A stretch of 64,000 nt of DNA from an uncultured delta proteobacterium (GCA_963727445.1 CAVSGI010000001.1:396-64395); one strand, 5' to 3'. Numbered from the stretch's first letter, positions 3,802 to 38,088 are shown. The notes: generated by a model from the letters alone, not told the origin. Numbers and translations: made by a program.

Positions 3802-4272
3802 TCACCGCTTCAGATACCAGAACCCGAAGTGTCCGCCGCTCGCCGGATTTCCGTCGCCGACGATGATGCGGGCCTCGAGGGTGTCGTCGTCGATGAGGGA
3901 GATGAAGACCATCGCGTCGCGACCCGCGATGGGGCCGGTGGTCGGCCGGCTCGCGTAGATGTAGTTCTGGACCCGCCCCTGGCCGGGGAAGTCGTACTGG
4001 CTGAGCTGGTCGTGCTTCAGCGGCTCGATCACCTCGAGAGGCGTATCGTCGAAGGCGTCGTAGCCCTCGGTCGTCAGAAAGCCGGGCGCGCTCCCTGGCG
4101 AGGGAGCGAAGTCGCGGATCGTGAGCCCGGTGCCCGGGGGAAACCCGCTGAGCAGGAACTCCGGGCGCGCATCGCCGACCACGGTCCCCTGCCAGGTGCC
4201 GTCGTAGTCGCTCAGATCGCTGCACGCGGAGGCGAGCACGATCAGAGCGAGCAGAGCGACGGGGCGGGCCAC
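3802..4272 (-). CDS. Small hypothetical lipoprotein (156 aa)
   Basis: MARPVALLALIVLASAC lipobox. Ends 8 nt upstream of the tsaD start on the same strand. No family recognised. Confidence 0.6.
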   Translation of the reverse strand: MARPVALLALIVLASACSDLSDYDGTWQGTVVGDARPEFLLSGFPPGTGLTIRDFAPSPGSAPGFLTTEGYDAFDDTPLEVIEPLKHDQLSQYDFPGQGRVQNYIYASRPTTGPIAGRDAMVFISLIDDDTLEARIIVGDGNPASGGHFGFWYLKR

Positions 4273-4297
4273 GGGCCGAGGATAGCGCAGAGAGCGC

Positions 4298-6157
4298 TCA
4301 GGGGCTCCGCCGGCGCCGCCGGCGCCGTGCCCAGAGGGCGATGAGACCGAGCATCAGCACGGCGAATCCGCCGCGGCGCGCCGGGCTGGGCGAGATCGCG
4401 CAGCCGCCCCCGTCGTCACCGCCGCCGCCGCTCAAGGCGGCCGGACGGACGCAGGCGTTGGTGACGCCGTCGCCGGTGCGGATGCACTCGAAGCCGGCCG
4501 AGCAGGCGTGGTCGGGCCCGCAGGTGGTCGTGCACACCGACCCGCCGGGCAGCGCGGCGCAGAGGTTGCTGATGCAGTCCTCGTTTGCCGTGCAGCTCTC
4601 CCCCACCAGCCCCGAATCGGGCGCGCAGATGCTGGCCGAGCCGACGTCCACGCAGCTGAAGCCAGCGCTGCACTCGCCCGTGCAGCTCGCGGTGCACCAG
4701 CTGGTGTCGCCGCGCACGGCGCAGGTGGGCGCTTCGGGGGCGCAGTCGGCGTTGGTGACGCAGCCGGCGCCGAGGCCGCCCCGCGCGCCACGCACGCAGA
4801 CCGATTCCCGGCAGTGGAAGACGTCGCCGCAATCGTCGTCGGAGCTGCAGCTCGCGCTGCAGTAGCTCGTCCCGAGCTCGGTGAAGCAGAGCCCCGAGCG
4901 ACAGTCGGCGTCGGCCTCGCAGGGCTCGCCGGCGCCGCGAAGGCCGGAGACGATCGCGGCGGCGACGCAACCGCCGCACGCGCCGGGAGCCGCCGCGCAG
5001 GCCTCCCCCGAGATGCACATCCCGGCGTCTCCCTCGCACGGCGTGAGGCAGCGCTGCCGCCCGTCCCCCGGATCGGTGCAGAAGAGGCTGGCGCATTCGC
5101 TGTCGGACGTGCAGTCGGCGCCGACGCCGAGGCGCATCCCACCCGGCGGGTCAGCGACGGGGAGGCACCGGCCGTCGCAGCCGCTGGTGTGTGCGCAGTA
5201 GTAGCCGACGGAGCAGCCGAGGCTCGGGGTGAGCGGCGAGCAAGGCTCGGTGCAGACCTGGCCGATGGGCGTGTCGTCGCACATGCCGCCGACGCATTCG
5301 TCACCGCTGCTGCACGCCTCGCCGAGCGCCAGGCAGCCCTCGTCCACCAGGTCGTCGCAATCGTTGTCGCTGCCGTCGCAGACCTCGTCTTCGTCCGCGG
5401 CGCAGGCGCCGCTCAGCTCCACGCCGTCGCGGATGAACGCCTGCAGGTCGGGGTTATCCCAACCGTTGTAGACGCCCTCCGCGGTGCCGCAGATCGGATT
5501 CCGACTGCCTCCGAGATCGAAGATGAAGGAGGCCACGCCGTACACGCGACCATCCGGGCCGATGAGAGGGCCGCCCGAGTCGCCTTCGCAGACGGTCGGC
5601 TCGACGAAGACCTTGTCGCCCAGCACCCGCTGGACGCGCTTCTGGGTGCTGTACTTGGTGCCAGCGTCGGAGGAAGGTGTCTGGCCGAAGCCGACGCCGG
5701 TGATGGTCTCGCCGATGAGGCCGCGCGGAGAGTCGAAGCTCACCTCCAGAGGCATGGGCGACGCCGGCGTGCTGAGGATCAGCATGCCGAGGTCGGTGTC
5801 GTCGTTCGATTCGATGTCCCAGGCGCCGGGCGCGGCCAGCACGTCGCTGACGCGATACTCGGCCGAGAAGCTCATGATGGAGGAGCCGGTGTAGACCGAG
5901 AACGCGCCTGGCACTTCCGTGGCGTCACCGCTGCCCCGCACGCAGTGCTTGGCGGTGAGCACCGCGCGCGGAGCGATGATGCTCCCGGTGCACAGGGCGC
6001 CTCGCCGTCCGTTGTAGACGAGGACGACGGCCGGGTGATTGTTGCGGTCGAGGGTCCCGTCGACGATCGCCGCCCGACCCTCGGAGACATCCTCGACGGG
6101 GGCCAGGCAGCCCGCCGCCGCGACCGCGACGGCGACCGTGAAGAGCACTGACTTCAT
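4298..6157 (-). CDS. Secreted trypsin-like serine protease (S1 family) with a Cys-rich repeat region and a MYXO-CTERM-like tail
   Basis: Signal peptide MKSVLFTVAVAVAAAGC. IVDG..LTAKHC (catalytic His) and CEGDSGGPL (catalytic Ser). CDGSDNDCDDLVDEGC is a MopE-like motif, followed by many CxxxxC repeats. The C-terminus GGGCAISPS..FAVLMLGLIALWARRRRRRR matches the MYXO-CTERM pattern. Confidence 0.9.
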   Translation of the reverse strand: MKSVLFTVAVAVAAAGCLAPVEDVSEGRAAIVDGTLDRNNHPAVVLVYNGRRGALCTGSIIAPRAVLTAKHCVRGSGDATEVPGAFSVYTGSSIMSFSAEYRVSDVLAAPGAWDIESNDDTDLGMLILSTPASPMPLEVSFDSPRGLIGETITGVGFGQTPSSDAGTKYSTQKRVQRVLGDKVFVEPTVCEGDSGGPLIGPDGRVYGVASFIFDLGGSRNPICGTAEGVYNGWDNPDLQAFIRDGVELSGACAADEDEVCDGSDNDCDDLVDEGCLALGEACSSGDECVGGMCDDTPIGQVCTEPCSPLTPSLGCSVGYYCAHTSGCDGRCLPVADPPGGMRLGVGADCTSDSECASLFCTDPGDGRQRCLTPCEGDAGMCISGEACAAAPGACGGCVAAAIVSGLRGAGEPCEADADCRSGLCFTELGTSYCSASCSSDDDCGDVFHCRESVCVRGARGGLGAGCVTNADCAPEAPTCAVRGDTSWCTASCTGECSAGFSCVDVGSASICAPDSGLVGESCTANEDCISNLCAALPGGSVCTTTCGPDHACSAGFECIRTGDGVTNACVRPAALSGGGGDDGGGCAISPSPARRGGFAVLMLGLIALWARRRRRRRSP

Positions 6158-27433: not shown

Positions 27434-29293
27434 ATGAGCGTTCGGGACCCCTTCGCAGAGGACGCCAAGGCGCTCCACATCGAGATCGACGCGATCCTGG
27501 CGAAGGACCTCGACGACCTCGCCCTCCGAGACGCGCTCGAGGCGCTCGAAGAGCGCAAGGCGATCCACCTCGTCTACTACCGGCTGATCCGCTCGCTGCT
27601 CGAAAAGAACCCGGTGGTCTTCGGGCCCCTCGTCCGACCGCGCCTCGACTCCTGGGGCTACGACCGCAATGGGAAGTGGCATCACCCCTGGACCAACGAC
27701 GAGGGCAAGCGCGATCTCGCCTTCATCCTGAAGCTCGCCGAGGAGCGCGGGGATGACGCGCTCTTCAAGCGCGCGATGCTCGTCTATCTCGATCGCGCCA
27801 AGTGGAAAGACCGTAACGCGCTCTTTCAGAAGGAGCTCCTCGCCCGCCTCGAGGGAGCCGCCGAGCCTCACGAGCGCGCTTCCGTCTTGTCGCGCTTCGA
27901 CCGGCTGGGCGTCCTCGACGACGACACGGCCCTCACCATCTACGCGGCGGCGCCCCTCGCCGGCCGGTCCTTCATCAGCCGTCACCTCCCGTGGCGGCCC
28001 TGGGGCACGGACGACGTCGATTTGTTGCCGAAGCTCCTCGAGGAGACGCGCGATCGCGATCCCGACTTCTACTTCGAGCTCTACCGCCGCCTCGCGGGGG
28101 ATGCGACCTGGGCAAGGGACGTGGACGTCGTGCTCCGCGAGGCGAGCGACGACGCGCTCGCGGCGGAGCTCGAGAAGCTCCACCCGCAGCGCTACGTGAA
28201 GAACGCGGCGAAGGTCTTCGCCAAGGCGCTCAAGGAGCGCGACGACGCGGCGCTGCCCTACGTGAGCCGCCACGTGGACGCGGTCGTGCGGGGCTTCTTC
28301 GGCCGGGGCGAGTACGGGGATCTCCTGCGCATCGCCTATGACCGCGGCTACGACACGCTCTGGGCGGGGCTCCTGCGCCACGCCGCGCCGCCGAAGGACT
28401 GGAACGCCGAGGTCCGGCGGCTCGCAGAGGTCCGTCGTGACGGCGGCGATGCGCGACGGCGCCTGCTCCTCCTCGCCGGCGCCGGCCGCGAGCTCAGCCT
28501 GCCGGGCCTGGGCCTCGCGCGGTTGCAGCCCCTCGAGGACGACACGGCGGTGCTGCTCTTCGAGCGATATCCCGAGCTGCTCCGCGGGCCCTTCAAGCGC
28601 AACATCTTCGGGGGCTGGCACCAGCCCTACACGAAGCTCGTCGCGCGCGTCCTCGCGGAGGGGGACGAGCTCCTGATCGACTTCCTCGCGAGTCGCTTCG
28701 TCACCCGCGGCGGTCCCTACATGAACGAGAAGGTGCTGGCCTCCGCGGCGACGCTGTCGAAGCACTACGAAGCGCTCCGCGGCGACCCGGTCGCCTTCGC
28801 CGAGCGCGCGGCGAACGTCCTCGGCCAGGTGCCGCCCTTCGTGATCTACGCCTACGAGCTTCTGCTCGAGACGAACCGCCTGGCGCGGCTCCTCTACGAG
28901 CACGCGGCCCGGGACTATCTCGCGAGCCCCGTCGCGATCCGCGATCTTCTCGAGGCGCCCGAGATCCACGCGCAGCGCCTCGCGTTCCTCGCCCTCTCGC
29001 TCGACGACGAACGCGCCCGTACCCTCGGCGCGGCGAATCTCGATCTCCTCGCCGCGACGCTCCTGCGCCCACTCCACCGGCGGACCCGGCTCCTCGCCAT
29101 GGACGCGCTCGACAACGCCGCGCGCGATGAGGCGACGGCCGCGCGCGTTCTTCACACCGCGCGCGAGGCGATGTTCCTCCCCGACGTGCGTTACCCGAAG
29201 GAGGAGCTGGTCGGGCTCCTCGGGCGCATCCTCCATCGGCACGCGAGCCTCCGCAGCGAACGCGAGCGGCCGGTCGTCTACGGGAGGGCGTGA
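27434..29293 (+). CDS. Retron-associated large alpha-helical repeat protein (candidate ARM-like accessory protein)
   Basis: Intact 619-aa ORF. Leu/Ala/Arg/Asp-rich helical periodicity throughout, with no signal peptide or catalytic motif recognised. The stop overlaps the next start (ATGA at 29290). Confidence 0.7.
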   Translation: MSVRDPFAEDAKALHIEIDAILAKDLDDLALRDALEALEERKAIHLVYYRLIRSLLEKNPVVFGPLVRPRLDSWGYDRNGKWHHPWTNDEGKRDLAFILKLAEERGDDALFKRAMLVYLDRAKWKDRNALFQKELLARLEGAAEPHERASVLSRFDRLGVLDDDTALTIYAAAPLAGRSFISRHLPWRPWGTDDVDLLPKLLEETRDRDPDFYFELYRRLAGDATWARDVDVVLREASDDALAAELEKLHPQRYVKNAAKVFAKALKERDDAALPYVSRHVDAVVRGFFGRGEYGDLLRIAYDRGYDTLWAGLLRHAAPPKDWNAEVRRLAEVRRDGGDARRRLLLLAGAGRELSLPGLGLARLQPLEDDTAVLLFERYPELLRGPFKRNIFGGWHQPYTKLVARVLAEGDELLIDFLASRFVTRGGPYMNEKVLASAATLSKHYEALRGDPVAFAERAANVLGQVPPFVIYAYELLLETNRLARLLYEHAARDYLASPVAIRDLLEAPEIHAQRLAFLALSLDDERARTLGAANLDLLAATLLRPLHRRTRLLAMDALDNAARDEATAARVLHTAREAMFLPDVRYPKEELVGLLGRILHRHASLRSERERPVVYGRA

Positions 29294-30876
29294 TGTTCGT
29301 CGCCGTCGACTACGCGAGCCCCAGCGCTCTGGTCAGCACCCGCAAAGACAGCGCCCTCGATCTGCGGAGCGACGGCACCCGACCTGTGCGCCTGCACGCG
29401 CGCATCGAAGAGCCCTACGTGCTGCCGGTGCGCCTGGCGCTACGCGCGCTCGGCGAGGTGGTCTGGTCGGACGATCGCTGGGTGGACGACATGTGGTACG
29501 GGTTCATCCTCGACCCGGTCGTCACCGTCCACGACGACCGCGTCTTCTTCGAGGCGTTCAGCCAGGACCAGAGCGCCTACGGGTTGGTGATCCTCGATCG
29601 CGCCGTGCTCGAGACCGAGGGCGAGGTGGTCATCGGCACCACCAACGTGGACTTCACCGCCTGGCTCTGGGCCGCGCTCGGCGAGATGCGGAGCAGCCGA
29701 ACGACCTGGCTGCGCGTGGGGCCGGAGGGGGTCGAGGTGCGCACCAGCGGCGGCGGCAGCCGCTTCGAGCCCAAGGTGGAGATCCCCGACCACTGGGTGC
29801 GCGGCTTTCTCCAGATGCAGGCGGCGGCGGCGATGCCGGGCACGCGCCTCGTGTTGAAGCCGGTGGACCTGCTCTCCGCGATCCGCTACCTCCGCTACAC
29901 CAAGGCCAAGGTGAGCCCCCGCGCCCTGCGCTACGAGATGCCTCCCGGCGAGGACGCGCGGTTGGTGATCGAGCCCTTCGAGCACGTGGTGCCGCTGCGC
30001 GGAGCGGACCACGGCCGTGAAGAGGAGCGCGTGATCCGCACCTGGGGCCGGCGCCGGCTCCGCCTCCTCGAGCCGCTGCTCCCCTACGCGGACGAGGTGC
30101 GCGTCTACCTCAAGGGTCGCGCGCTGCCGAGCTTCTACGCCGCCCAGCTGCCCGGGGTGACCTTCGTCCTCGGCCTCACCGGCTGGACCGCGAACAGCTT
30201 CACCCGGAGCGGGGGGCACGATCTGGCCACGGGCATCGAAGATGCGGACGAGCGGCTGGTGAACGCCGCGATCGAGGCGCTGCGCGCGCGGCAGGCGGCG
30301 ACGGCGGAAGAGATCGCGCGCGCCATCTCGGCGCCGCTGCCCGAGGTGGACCGCGCGCTCGCGCGCCTCTGCCGGCGCGGCCGGGCCATCTTCGACGTCG
30401 AGGCGCGCGCCTATCGCCATCGGGAGCTCTTCGCCGAGCCGCTGGATCTGAAACGGGAAGCGGAGCTCTTCCCGCCGGACCGGCGACGCGCCGAAGCGCG
30501 CAAGCTCCTCGACAGCGGGGCGGTCGAAGTCGAGTCGGTCGCCGTGGAGCAGACCAGGAAGGTCCGAAAGCTGAAGACGCCCGAGGGTCGGGTGACCCGC
30601 GAGGTGGTGCACCGCGACCATCGGGTGCGCGGGAAGATGCCCGGCGTGACCCGCACCGAGATCGTCGTCGCCGAGAGCGGCCGCGTGATCTTCGGCACCT
30701 GCAGCTGCCCCTTCTTCGCGGACAACCTCCTGAACCGTGGACCCTGCGAGCACATGGTGGCGCTCCTCGAGGCGAGCGCGAAGGAGCGCAAGGACGCGCC
30801 GACCTCCACTGAGGCGTCGGGCGACGCGAGCCAGCCAGCGCCGCCGCGACACGACAACCACGGAGAGGACGCATGA
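29290..30876 (+). CDS. Retron-associated SWIM zinc-finger protein
   Basis: 528 aa. The C-terminal CSCPFFADNLLNRGPCEHMVAL fits the SWIM CxCx(n)CxH signature. It ends 25 nt before the msr/msd inverted repeat. Confidence 0.85.
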   Translation: MMFVAVDYASPSALVSTRKDSALDLRSDGTRPVRLHARIEEPYVLPVRLALRALGEVVWSDDRWVDDMWYGFILDPVVTVHDDRVFFEAFSQDQSAYGLVILDRAVLETEGEVVIGTTNVDFTAWLWAALGEMRSSRTTWLRVGPEGVEVRTSGGGSRFEPKVEIPDHWVRGFLQMQAAAAMPGTRLVLKPVDLLSAIRYLRYTKAKVSPRALRYEMPPGEDARLVIEPFEHVVPLRGADHGREEERVIRTWGRRRLRLLEPLLPYADEVRVYLKGRALPSFYAAQLPGVTFVLGLTGWTANSFTRSGGHDLATGIEDADERLVNAAIEALRARQAATAEEIARAISAPLPEVDRALARLCRRGRAIFDVEARAYRHRELFAEPLDLKREAELFPPDRRRAEARKLLDSGAVEVESVAVEQTRKVRKLKTPEGRVTREVVHRDHRVRGKMPGVTRTEIVVAESGRVIFGTCSCPFFADNLLNRGPCEHMVALLEASAKERKDAPTSTEASGDASQPAPPRHDNHGEDA

Positions 30877-30901
30877 GCGTCCTGTCGATAGAGATGATCA
30901 C

Positions 30902-31057
30902 GACCGGTGAGGAGCTCGAAGCGAGATCAGCCTTCTGCGCGGTGTTTCGCCGTGCTGGCGTATTGAGCTCATCACATCGCCGCGGTCCCAGCGCACGAAA
31001 CGCCGGGAGCCACGGGTCCAGGGCCCCGAGAGTGGTCCTTCGGGTTCCTCACCGGTC
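30902..31057 (+). ncRNA. msr-msd: Retron msr-msd non-coding RNA (template/primer for msDNA)
   Basis: A 20-bp inverted repeat (30902-30921 / 31038-31057) closes a 116-nt structured region 22 nt upstream of a retron RT. Both DNA mismatches become G.U pairs only in the + strand transcript. AAGCGAGA follows the 5' arm. Internal hairpins lie at 30937-30955 and 30980-31015. Confidence 0.7.
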
Positions 31058-31078
31058 ACCTTCTCGTCGGGCGGGCGC

Positions 31079-32359
31079 ATGAGCCTCCTCAGGCGCTTCC
31101 TCTCCTTCTTGTGGCGCCTCTTCTTCGCCTCGAAGAAGCTCGAGCGGCGCACGACGCGCCACGGCCAGGGCGACCTCGATCAGACCCACGAGGAGGTCGA
31201 TCTCTCGGGCGGTCCGCTCAAGCCCGCGCATCGACGCAGGGCGCTCCACGACCCGCGTCTTCTTCCAAAGCCCGCGCGAAAGAACCCCTGGGAGAAGCCG
31301 CCGAAGGTGATGGACGCCGACGAGGCCGGCCGCCTCTTCGCGCCGACGATGCGCACCAAGAGCCGGCGGCTGCGCACCCTCGTCGCCGACGAGGAGCAGC
31401 TCGCGCGTCACGACCTCCCCGCCTGGAAGAGCGAGGCCGAGGTCGCAGCGGCCCTCGGCGTGACCCGCGGCGAGCTGCGTCATTTCAGCATTCATCGCCA
31501 GCGTGAGCGCACCCCCCACTACGTGACCTTCGCCGTGCCCAAGCGGAGCGGAGGCGAGCGATTGATCTGCGCGCCGAAGGCGCAGCTCAAGGCCTTGCAG
31601 CGAACGCTCCTGAAGGAGCTCATCGAACACCTTCCCGTTCACGACGCGGCCCACGGCTTCCGCAAGGGCCGCTCGGTGCGCACCGCCGCCGAGGCGCACG
31701 TCGGCCGCGCGGTCGTCGTGCGCATGGACCTGCGCGACTTCTTCGGAACAGTCACCTTCGTGCGCGTGCGCGGTTACCTGGTGGCGATGGGTTATGGCTA
31801 CGAGGTCGCCACCATCCTCGCGGTGCTGATGACGGAGGCGCCACGCCAGCCGGTGGCCGTGGGAGACGACGTCTTCCACGTCCCCGTCGGCCCGCGGAGC
31901 GCGGTGCAAGGTGCGCCCACCAGCCCCGCGATCTGCAACGCGATCGTCCACAAGCTCGACGCGCGCCTCTCGGGCCTCGCCGCCGCGCTCGGGTTTCGGT
32001 ACACCCGCTACGCGGACGACCTCACCTTCTCCAGCGACGATCCCGAACGGGTCGGCCGGTTGATGCACGCCGTGCGGGAGATCGTGCGAGACGAGGGCTT
32101 CGCGCTCAACCGCGACAAGACGCGGGTCATGCGCAAGGGCGGCCACCAGACGGTCTGTGGCGTCACCGTCAACGAGACGCTCGGGCTCAGCCGAAAGACG
32201 CGCAAGAAGCTGCGCGCGATGATCCATGCGGAGAAGCAGAGTCGTGACCGTGGCGAGGCCGACGCCTCGCGCACGGCGATGATCGAGGGCTGGCTCGCCT
32301 ATCTGTCGATGCTCAATGAAGAGCAGGCCGAGGCGCTCCGCGTGCGCTGGGTCAGCTGA
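31079..32359 (+). CDS. ret: Retron-type reverse transcriptase
   Basis: YVTFAVPKRSGGERLICAPKAQLKALQRTLL (RT1-2), AHGFRKGRS, RMDLRDFFG, LPQ-type block VQGAPTSPAICNAIVHKLD (retron NAxxH), FRYTRYADDLTFS (YADD), VCGVTVN (retron VTG-like block). There is a roughly 110-aa N-terminal extension. 426 aa. Confidence 0.93.
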   Translation: MSLLRRFLSFLWRLFFASKKLERRTTRHGQGDLDQTHEEVDLSGGPLKPAHRRRALHDPRLLPKPARKNPWEKPPKVMDADEAGRLFAPTMRTKSRRLRTLVADEEQLARHDLPAWKSEAEVAAALGVTRGELRHFSIHRQRERTPHYVTFAVPKRSGGERLICAPKAQLKALQRTLLKELIEHLPVHDAAHGFRKGRSVRTAAEAHVGRAVVVRMDLRDFFGTVTFVRVRGYLVAMGYGYEVATILAVLMTEAPRQPVAVGDDVFHVPVGPRSAVQGAPTSPAICNAIVHKLDARLSGLAAALGFRYTRYADDLTFSSDDPERVGRLMHAVREIVRDEGFALNRDKTRVMRKGGHQTVCGVTVNETLGLSRKTRKKLRAMIHAEKQSRDRGEADASRTAMIEGWLAYLSMLNEEQAEALRVRWVS

Positions 32360-33167
32360 GCTCGTCGTTCAACAGGTCGAGTCGGGCGAGGCCCGGCTTC
32401 AGCTGCTCGCGCCAGCACCGCTCGAAAACCAGCACCTGACGCACGGGCGAGAAGAGCCCGAGGGCGGCGCGCGCCGGCTCGGGGTGGGCGTCGAGGGTGC
32501 GCGCGTCCTCGCCCACCTCGCGAAGGATCCGCGCGGCCTGCTCGCGATGCGGCGCGACGGTGGTCGCCACCAGATGACGCCAACTCGTGAGCGTCGAGGG
32601 ACGAAAGCGCTTCAGCGACTCCTCGACGTAGGCCCAACCGAATCGCTGGTGGCCCTCTTCGTCGGCGACGGTCGCGTCCAGCACCCGGCGCACCGCACCA
32701 TCGGGACAGCGCTCGCGCAGGTCCTCCACGAACGCCACCGAGATGGTCTCGTTGATGAGGAGCATCGAGATCGCCGTGGTGAGCGCGCGCTCGGGCATGG
32801 GCGCGCGGAGGTAGCGCTCGGGATCGCGCAGCTCGACGGGGTCCGGAAGCATCGGCGTCGCCCCGAGGGCCTCGCAGAGCGCCGCGCAGAGCGCCGTGTG
32901 CCGGATCTCGTCCACCACCAGGTCCGCCGCGCCCGCGTAGACCTCCAGAGGATCGCCCGCGCCGACGACCTCGGAGGCGAAGCGCGTCATGATCTGGATG
33001 GAGCGGAACTCGGTGCGCACCCGCTGCTGCCAGGTTCGGCGCGCCTCCTCGAGGAGCGACGGATCGTGCGCCTGCGGATCGAAATCCGACAGGTCGACGC
33101 CATCCCCCAGCACCTCGGCTGAGAGCGCCGCGAAGGGTGGTCCAGCGCGCATGAGCGGACGGGCCAT
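32352..33167 (-). CDS. Ferritin-like (di-iron carboxylate type) domain protein
   Basis: Two ExxH motifs in helical context (LVVDEIRHTA, VADEEGHQRFGW) plus LINETISVAFVEDL. 271 aa. The 3' end overlaps the RT 3' end by 8 nt (convergent). Confidence 0.6.
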   Translation of the reverse strand: MARPLMRAGPPFAALSAEVLGDGVDLSDFDPQAHDPSLLEEARRTWQQRVRTEFRSIQIMTRFASEVVGAGDPLEVYAGAADLVVDEIRHTALCAALCEALGATPMLPDPVELRDPERYLRAPMPERALTTAISMLLINETISVAFVEDLRERCPDGAVRRVLDATVADEEGHQRFGWAYVEESLKRFRPSTLTSWRHLVATTVAPHREQAARILREVGEDARTLDAHPEPARAALGLFSPVRQVLVFERCWREQLKPGLARLDLLNDELS

Positions 33168-37025: not shown

Positions 37026-38088
37026 CTAGAAGCTATCTCAAAACTCGTGGGATCTAAGTCTGCGAGGATTAAGAAGAAAGCGTTGGGGGATCGACGTCGG
37101 ATCGGTTTTCTGATCTACGGTCTGAATGGATCTGACCGATCAGCAGTGGAAAATCCTGGAGCCCCTTCTTCCTGAGCGCGACAGACGTAGGGGCAGCCCA
37201 GGAAGGCCACGACGGTCTGCTCGTGAGGTGCTCGACGGCGTGCTGTGGATTCTACGCACCGGTGCGCAGTGGGGCGATCTGCCAGGACGTTATCCGCCGT
37301 ACCAGACATGCCACCGACGCTATCAGCAGTGGGTCGACGAAGGTGTGATGGAGCGAATGCTGCGAGCGTTGGCTGAAGACCTACGGGATCGCGGGAAGCT
37401 GGACCTGACAGAAGGATTCATCGACGGCACCCACGCGGGGGCCAAAAAGGGGGGCCTTGCGTTGGAAAAACTCGTCGCGGGAAGGCCACCAAGATCATGG
37501 CAGTCGCAGACGGCAATGGTCTTCCTATCGCCGCTCTCGATTGCGAGTGGTCAGCGTCATGAGGTCACGCTCGTCGACGAAACGTTAGACGCGGCCTTCT
37601 TGGACGAGCTGCCGCAACGTTTGATCGGAGACAAGGCGTACGACAGTGTTCGCGTGGCTGCAGAACCTCCGACGGCTCGTTACCCGCTACGAACGCCGGC
37701 CAGAAAACTTCCTGGGCTTCGTGCGGCTCGGCTGTCTCGTCATCCTGCTCAGACAGTTCTGAATCACCCAGTTCGAGAAACTCGTCCGAGATTGATTTAT
37801 CAGGCGCCGGAGGGAGGGTCGCACCCCGGGGTGTCCGGCCGTGCCAACGCGCACGCAGTGTCGCACCCGCGTTGGCACGGACGGACAGGGGACCTTGCGC
37901 GAGCGCTCTCTAGTCGGCAAGAAGGCGTAGCGGTGCCGTCAGGCGACGCGGAGCTGGATTGCCGACGAGACCACGTTGCTGGTCTTGCCTCGCGCTCGCA
38001 TCTGCAAGGTCCCCGAGCCCCGGGGTGGGACCCTCCCTTCGGCGCGGTCATGCAGTTCGCGAGCGCTGAGTTTTGAGATAGCTTCTAG
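37026..38088 (+). mobile_element. IS5-family (IS427-like) insertion sequence, decayed
   Basis: Perfect 21-bp terminal inverted repeats CTAGAAGCTATCTCAAAACTC (37026-37046) and GAGTTTTGAGATAGCTTCTAG (38068-38088). The outer CTAG can equally be read as a 4-bp target duplication. The element encloses a broken DDE transposase gene. Confidence 0.85.
37126..37762 (+). pseudogene. IS5/IS427-group transposase, frame-shifted and internally deleted
   Basis: [70 protein letters not shown].. is the typical N-terminus. The frame slips at gccAAAAAGGGGGGcc and returns near 37545 (..[18 protein letters not shown].. is in another frame). DKAYDS is joined directly to [38 protein letters not shown], so about 45 aa of the catalytic core are missing. 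Confidence 0.85.

Follow-up and report, generated by a model that had tools for sequence, protein, structure and literature searches.

A probable msr-msd RNA gene of a compact type XIII retron in an uncultured delta proteobacterium

We analysed a 64-kb stretch of DNA (hereafter the window, meaning the stretch at its full length) and conclude that positions 30902-31057 very probably constitute the msr-msd non-coding RNA (ncRNA) gene of a type XIII retron, with G30930 as the likely priming G. The whole element is 156 nt long. Its terminal a1/a2 repeats enclose an msr hairpin and one long msd hairpin, and it lies on the same strand as the reverse transcriptase (RT) gene. A previous reading of the sequence alone had proposed a retron msr-msd RNA for this region, with transcription in the direction of the RT, and the proposal is borne out by structure, orthologues, wobble counts and gene context. 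The retron is a type XIII retron of a compact, short-msd sub-lineage with a 102-nt G-to-G core, which could serve as a short, engineerable retron scaffold. The gain is one of annotation more than of discovery: the msr-msd is now fixed for an unannotated type XIII retron and for 12 orthologues.

The window has a GC content of ~70%. The + strand order at the locus is the 619-aa gene, the SWIM/DEDE gene, the ncRNA and the RT gene, and the features are as follows.

27434-29293, + strand: 619-aa accessory gene, first of the cassette (ORF; stop overlaps the SWIM start by 4 nt)
29290-30876, + strand: 528-aa SWIM zinc-finger/DEDE-motif protein (PADLOC SWIM_XIII, Pfam SWIM, motifs)
30873-31082, + strand: 69-codon ORF that runs from the SWIM stop to the RT start and holds the whole ncRNA (ATGA at both ends)
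30902-30921, + strand: a2, 5' arm of the outer stem (sequence, fold, inverted repeats; 12 orthologues)
30922-30924, + strand: 3-nt bulge CGA between outer stem and inner helix (fold; 0-4 nt and variable in orthologues)
30925-30929, + strand: inner closing helix, 5' strand GAUCA, pairing with 31033-31037 (fold, covariation)
30930, + strand: predicted branching G, in UCAGCC (inferred; invariant in 13 loci)
30937-30955, + strand: msr hairpin GCGCGGUG-UUU-CGCCGUGC (fold, covariation)
30956-30979, + strand: variable linker, probably the msr 3' end and the zone where the RT stops (general retron anatomy)
30980-31015, + strand: template of the msd hairpin, stems 30980-30993 / 31001-31015 (fold, covariation, A.C bias)
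31016-31031, + strand: template of the msDNA 5' tail, first base predicted as A31031 (position relative to the opposing G; Ec86 analogy)
31032, + strand: invariant G facing the predicted branching G (conservation, fixed spacing)
31033-31037, + strand: inner closing helix, 3' strand UGGUC (fold, covariation)
31038-31057, + strand: a1, 3' arm of the outer stem (sequence, fold, inverted repeats, orthologues)
31079-32359, + strand: retron RT, 426 aa, with an N-terminal extension (PADLOC RT_XIII, Pfam RVT_1)

Structure, strand and conservation of the RNA

The outer stem is formed by gaccggtgaggagctcgaag (30902-30921) and cttcgggttcctcaccggtc (31038-31057), which can be read directly from the sequence as complementary over 20 bp, with 18 Watson-Crick pairs and two wobbles, G30914.U31045 and U30916.G31043. 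A search of the 64-kb window for inverted repeats of at least 16 nt with arms at most 300 nt apart recovered the same arm pair as repeat I23 (20 nt, 90% Watson-Crick, arms 116 nt apart). Among the 25 longest of the 132 inverted repeats, I23 and two others have 20 nt or more at a complementarity of at least 90%, and both of the others belong to an unrelated element at 37804-38045. The closing stem described in the sequence-only reading was thereby confirmed, both in the sequence and among the inverted repeats.

When 30890-31070 was folded as + strand RNA, the MFE was -90.5 kcal/mol (z = -4.40) and none of 200 shuffles was as good; the - strand RNA of the same region gave -82.6 kcal/mol (z = -3.26). 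Both inner hairpins that had been named beforehand, 30937-30955 and 30980-31015, are present in the + strand fold and are kept with covariation in orthologues. Rfam returned no retron match at gathering score in the whole window and no retron family at E up to 10 in 29000-33000, a blank which means only that Rfam has no model suited to this type of ncRNA. Scans for sigma-70 promoters and intrinsic terminators found nothing.

The unrelated element at 37804-38045 comprises 242 nt of nested inverted repeats, with 28-nt outer arms at 93% complementarity, an inner 20-bp hairpin and a further long stem. Its RNA folds with z = -12.6 on the + strand and z = -11.1 on the - strand, and it is located in a lower-GC patch just 3' of a fragment of an IS4/5-family transposase (PF13340). 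It had no Rfam match and no RT nearby.

For comparison across loci, RT scans yielded 160 loci and a protein search gave the best 120 relatives of the RT (55-79% identity), from which seven contigs of the closest relatives were added to the locus set. A search with a profile of the core found 13 distinct loci with a homologue of full length immediately ahead of the RT, namely the window, L161, L162, L163, L164, L165, L001, L167, L002, L081, L005 (identical to L082 and L083), L003 and L004. The core is 72-93% identical to that of the window at the DNA level, compared with 66-82% for the RT and SWIM genes, while the flanks that hold the arms (25 nt on each side) are 40-88% identical. MAFFT alignments that included the outer arms put these out of register; the arms were judged by the duplex energies of cognate and non-cognate pairs, and the interior by an interior-only alignment (A3). 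Cognate arms form duplexes with a mean of -41.2 kcal/mol, against -25.3 kcal/mol (sd 6.7) for non-cognate arms, and cross-pairing is confined to close relatives. The closing stem of L167 is weak, at -21.4 kcal/mol. Compensatory conservation of the stem, on which the sequence-only reading had staked its proposal, is thus seen in orthologues, where the arms differ in sequence yet remain complementary to their own partners.

The interior helices, taken from RNAalifold and a count of pairs on A3, are conserved in the same manner. The inner helix (30925-30929 / 31033-31037) is paired in 93.8% of cells, and three of its five pairs have changed on both sides. The msr hairpin (30938-30944 / 30948-30954, with G30937-C30955 added in the window) is 100% paired and contains two covarying pairs and an invariant U.G; the msd hairpin (30980-30993 / 31001-31015) is 93.6% paired, with three covarying pairs. 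Over all interior helices, 95.7% of cells are paired and eight pairs have changed on both sides, which was reached in none of 500 shuffles, and pairing drops to 33-47% when the helix partners are slid by one to three columns. The least conserved part of the core is the linker at 30956-30979.

A covariance model built from A3 (R1) has a single match in the window, on the + strand at 30925-31037 (127.9 bits). About 30 distant type XIII loci also give weak + strand matches to the model upstream of their RT, and the msr motif GGUG(U/C)UUCGCC is found ahead of the RT in distant loci of this type. We also observed a slightly broader msr core, GGUG(U/C)U(U/C)CGCC flanked by four complementary bases, upstream of type XIII RTs that are only ~40-45% identical to that of the window (L022, L023, L024, L032, L036, L060, L094, L095, L098 and L119). 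In these loci, which belong to Myxococcota or are annotated as Verrucomicrobia and Alphaproteobacteria, the msr core sits ~600-900 nt upstream of the RT match and the msd parts are much longer.

Two annotations among the orthologues deserve comment. In L163, the RT gene as called (4001-5428, 475 aa) begins 5' of the ncRNA and runs across it, the core lying at ~3991-4103; the start has probably been over-extended in a GC-rich, stop-free frame. The closest locus from the genome collection, L001 (CAYMSU010000324.1), has an RT that is 65% identical and a GC content of 73% around the ncRNA, and because of this composition and its relatives, its label 'uncultured Enterobacteriaceae bacterium' looks like a binning or labelling error.

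The wobble pairs differ in polarity between parts of the RNA. Across the 13 loci, which are not phylogenetically independent, the outer stems contain 25 G.U against 3 A.C, the inner helix 8 G.U against 3 A.C, and the msr hairpin 20 G.U against 0 A.C, whereas the msd hairpin has 1 G.U against ~22 A.C/C.A cells. The G.U asymmetry first noticed in the closing stem of the window therefore holds in the outer stems of its orthologues. In the msd hairpin, the mismatch C30983.A31012 occurs in 11 of the 13 loci, and A30990.C31004 or a neighbouring pair is also conserved as A.C. An A.C mismatch in RNA corresponds to a G.T wobble in the complementary DNA, and the msd hairpin is continuously paired when folded as DNA or as - strand RNA; the predicted msDNA folded as DNA is no better than shuffled sequences (z = -0.34). 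This pattern suggests that the RNA-only parts are selected as + strand RNA and the msd hairpin in the cDNA sense, so that the A.C bias of the msd hairpin, G.T in the cDNA, would indirectly indicate that this hairpin is reverse transcribed. Wobble polarity could thus serve to distinguish, by computation alone, the reverse-transcribed part of a retron RNA from the rest.

These observations also bear on whether the element could be a generic intergenic hairpin, such as a terminator, an attenuator, a REP-like or an mRNA-stabilising structure, from which no msDNA is made. Such an element would equally appear as a long GC-rich stem between two genes, and the lack of a retron match in Rfam would be in line with it. 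We regard it as highly improbable, since no terminator-like site is present, the window holds only one copy of the element, conservation is higher in its interior than in the coding flanks, the anatomy is that of a retron ncRNA adjoining a retron RT, and the wobble polarity of the msd points to selection on cDNA.

Predicted priming G and start of the msDNA

The retron literature puts the priming G inside the 5' strand of the closing stem or immediately 3' of it, in an AGC-type context that reads CAGC in Mx162 and Sa163 and GAGC in Mx65 (PMC6868368). In the window, the closing helix resumes past the 3-nt bulge as GAUCA/UGGUC (30925-30929 / 31033-31037), and G30930 follows directly after this inner helix, opposite the invariant G31032. 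G30930 is the sole invariant G between the arm and the msr hairpin across the 13 loci, within CAGC in ten of them, GAGC in two and UAGC in one, and G31032 follows at a distance of 102 nt in eight loci and of 104-105 nt in the other five. The distant locus L094 has a bulge-free closing helix that extends up to ...UUUUGA-G-CC (the G at issue set off by hyphens), with a G before the 3' arm. From these comparisons, the branching G is most likely G30930 in UCAGCC: the pair G30930/G31032 appears to conform to a conserved AGC-type priming G facing a G on the 3' side, and G30921 and G30923 do not. RNAalifold also pairs G30930-C30932 with 30957-30959, which would bury the candidate G. This helix was left out of the set, as none of its pairs has changed on both sides and it occupies the candidate priming G.

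The sequence-only reading had instead placed the priming G at G30921 or G30923 and the 5' end of the msDNA opposite ~31037. It drew on the likeness of AAGCGAGA (30919-30926) to UAGCGAGA, the context of the branching G in Ec86; moreover, G30921 belongs to an AGC triplet that ends the 20-bp outer stem, and G30923 is located in the bulge, where its 2'-OH would be accessible. Neither G is conserved, however. G30921 is replaced by A in L161, the nearest relative (RT 79% identical), whose locus is otherwise intact, and G30923 is T in L165, C in L001 and A in L163. The likeness of AAGCGAGA to Ec86 is likewise not kept in orthologues. The bulge ranges from 0 to 4 nt and is variable in sequence, but the GAUCA/UGGUC helix beyond it is conserved with compensatory changes and the spacing between G30930 and G31032 is fixed. 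That the same retron ncRNA is primed at G30921 or G30923, with an msDNA starting opposite ~31037, is in our judgement unlikely.

With G30930 as the preferred branching G facing G31032, the msDNA would start opposite 31031, and the first templated base is predicted to be A31031 by analogy with the Ec86 sequence. The predicted 5' end of the msDNA has accordingly moved from ~31037 to ~31031, since the closing helix runs on past the bulge. The expectation that the msDNA is short was retained, with a predicted length of ~55-70 nt.

Gene context, related retrons and proposed mechanism

Type XIII retrons are defined by a clade-10 RT together with a SWIM/DEDE protein (cluster 114; Mestre et al., 2020; PMC7736814). 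This protein has a DEDE motif, a winged helix and a C-terminal SWIM motif, CxCx12CxH (PMC7736814). In many members, although not in all, it is preceded by a HEAT/ARM-like (WGR-like) accessory gene (clusters 216, 259, 1688 and 3262), and the type has its own ncRNA structure, with Mx162, Mx65, Sa163 and Ne144 as validated members (PMC7736814). On the evidence of profile and motif matches, the window carries a predicted clade-10 RT (RT_XIII) with a predicted SWIM/DEDE protein adjacent to it. The RT matches PADLOC RT_XIII over residues 93-422 (1.4e-131), with the next best models far lower, and Pfam RVT_1 at residues 153-356. The 528-aa protein matches PADLOC SWIM_XIII (9.4e-142) and Pfam SWIM (residues 465-495), and it contains the motif D75-x7-D-x4-E-x32-D-x38-E160 as well as CxCx12CxH at 471-488; it is the presumed effector of type XIII retrons.

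The 619-aa protein had no match in Pfam, PADLOC, NCBIfam or PDB. Its gene occupies the position that the HEAT/ARM-like protein takes in type XIII retrons, as described by Mestre et al. (2020), and by this analogy the 619-aa protein may be the counterpart. A gene of ~600-670 aa occupies the accessory position in L162-L167, and the three-gene type XIII layout is kept in these loci. In the comparison with L162, the SWIM protein is 81% identical, the RT 72%, and the 619-aa protein 66% (to a syntenic 616-aa gene). The greater conservation of the SWIM protein than of the RT is to be set against the suggestion by Mestre et al. that the SWIM protein is the more recent acquisition.

The nearest relatives of the host are Myxococcota or Polyangiaceae MAGs. 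The nearest database relative of the RT is 79% identical over 100% of the length, and its best relative in the PDB is the RT of Ec86 (4e-30). About one tenth of the closest relatives of the RT (518-536 aa) are fusions of an N-terminal WGR domain (PF05406) to a retron RT (P0025, P0033, P0037, P0042, P0046, P0057, P0075, P0091, P0096, P0110 and P0115). In the account of Mestre et al., a WGR-like domain is a feature of the HEAT/ARM accessory protein, which is a protein of its own.

The motifs of the RT include YADD at 311, AAEAH at 203 in place of the retron NAxxH, and VCG at 359 in place of VTG. These departures from the consensus could be taken as signs of a decayed retron whose fold survives and which no longer makes msDNA, and the vertical inheritance of type XIII retrons in myxobacteria (PMC7736814) makes relics conceivable. 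Among the 120 closest RT relatives, however, region X reads GAxxH in 44 and NAxxH in 26, so the N is replaced in most of them (VTG is kept in 100), and the N is also reported as replaced in Mx65, which does produce msDNA (PMC6868368). All three ORFs are intact, the catalytic YADD, DEDE and SWIM motifs are present, and the ncRNA core is under strong constraint. Decay is therefore quite improbable in our assessment.

In Mx65 (Retron-Mxa2, Myxococcus xanthus), the DNA measures 65 nt, the RNA 49 nt, with the G at its position 4, and the RT 427 aa. These sizes would fit the 102-nt core and the 426-aa RT of the window. Mx65 is of the same type as the window retron by RT clade and SWIM partner. Both RTs have an extended N-terminus and a replaced N in NAxxH, and the contexts of the priming G are GAGC and CAGC, respectively (PMC6868368). 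The window element is not Mx65 itself: no Myxococcus protein occurs among the best 120 RT matches, all of which are at least 55% identical. Among the matches listed in a protein search that started from an Archangium RT, there was no entry from Myxococcus or Stigmatella. Mx162 (Retron-Mxa1) and Sa163 (Retron-Sau1) share the type and the gene partners with the window (PMC7736814) and, like it, have a long a1/a2 stem with the priming G in CAGC at its inner end (PMC6868368). The msr motif GGUGUUUCGCC is common to the window and to type XIII loci with a long msd, such as that of Archangium. Mx162 and Sa163 differ in producing a 162-163-nt msDNA from a transcript of ~240 nt (PMC6868368), compared with the 156-nt element and the predicted ~55-70-nt msDNA of the window. 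Ec86 (Retron-Eco1, type II-A), the retron whose structure is known best, also has an a1/a2 stem, a branching G in AGC after the stem, an opposing G and an msd hairpin. It belongs to a different RT clade and ncRNA family and has a different effector, and, unlike in Ec86, the ncRNA of the window lies downstream of the effector genes and inside a bridging ORF.

We propose that the RNA would be transcribed on the + strand with, or just ahead of, the RT gene, and would close on itself through the 20-bp outer stem, the 3-nt bulge and the 5-bp inner helix. The RT would then prime cDNA from the 2'-OH of the G that comes directly after the inner helix, most likely G30930, and copying would start at A31031 and proceed leftwards through the hairpin at 30980-31015. 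Synthesis would stop somewhere in 30956-30979, and host RNase H would trim the template; a role of RNase H1 in the termination of reverse transcription has been described (PMC8989520). This would yield a branched molecule of RNA and DNA whose msDNA is ~55-70 nt long. The complex of msDNA and RT may restrain two proteins, SWIM/DEDE and the 619-aa partner, for as long as phage infection has not disturbed the complex. A role in defence, and a toxin-antitoxin-like control of the SWIM/DEDE protein, would be extrapolations from other retron types: we found no functional or structural study of type XIII in the literature, and no solved structure for type XIII SWIM or accessory proteins.

The ORF that bridges the SWIM and RT genes

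The whole ncRNA lies within a 69-codon ORF (30873-31082) that has ATGA overlaps both with the SWIM stop at its start and with the RT start at its end, and an SD-like GGAGAGGA is located 3 nt upstream of its ATG. Of the 13 loci, 11 have a bridging ORF, eight of them sharing one frame and L003, L004 and L005 using another; the ORF is absent from the close orthologues L002 and L081, which have an early in-frame stop.

The overlaps with both neighbours and the SD-like sequence could be read as marks of a gene for a 69-aa protein, in which case the conservation would reflect coding, with the stem being incidental. Frame 0 is open in 10 of the 13 orthologues and its pN/pS (0.63) is below that of the other two frames (0.90 and 1.12), and with the core being an open reading frame, part of its conservation could in principle be coding. 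Coding leaves unexplained, however, why the arms change sequence completely and stay complementary. The early stops in L002 and L081 also speak against it, as does the use of a different frame over the same conserved nucleotides in L003, L004 and L005. All three frames are about equally stop-free in the GC-rich core, the constraint implied by a pN/pS of 0.63 is weak for a genuine protein, three-base periodicity is slight, and the peptide had no Pfam match. A conserved small protein was therefore rejected on the inconsistency of the frame and the weak pN/pS, and we consider it extremely improbable that the conservation reflects such a protein and not the RNA.

With conservation of the RNA as the preferred reading, the ORF itself still calls for comment, as its start and stop overlaps are not random. 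We compared 77 distinct type XIII loci in which SWIM precedes the RT. An ATGA occurs at the SWIM stop in 33 of them, and for 20 of these 33 loci the reading frame opened by its ATG closes between -30 and +60 nt of the RT start. The +1 frame reaches this zone in none of the 33, and in the 44 loci that lack ATGA either frame does so in four to five. In Vibrio and Enterovibrio, which have a GC content of 45-47%, the bridging frame is stop-free over 142-152 codons, and the other frames contain 6-11 stops. The position of the bridging frame relative to the conserved msr nucleotides differs between lineages.

These comparisons suggest that the bridging ORF may be translated, its peptide probably not being the selected product, and that translational coupling from SWIM to RT through the ncRNA would be the most economical reading. 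That the msr-msd RNA is translated through, with selection acting on the act of translation and not on the peptide, is a tentative proposal to which we give somewhat less than even chances. If it is true, translation could open the RT start to ribosomes behind a stem of -40 kcal/mol, and the folding of the ncRNA and the synthesis of msDNA could depend on the translational state of the cell, for example on a shut-off induced by phages. The ORF would then suggest a layer of translational control in type XIII retrons; our literature search found no report of such a layer or of translation through a retron ncRNA.

The bridging ORF recurs in about one third of the type XIII loci surveyed, across several phyla. 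Its peptide is not conserved across lineages, and the ORF was also observed in L161, L162, L163, L164, L004, L005, L030, L033, L040, L032, L050, L059 and L060, among others.
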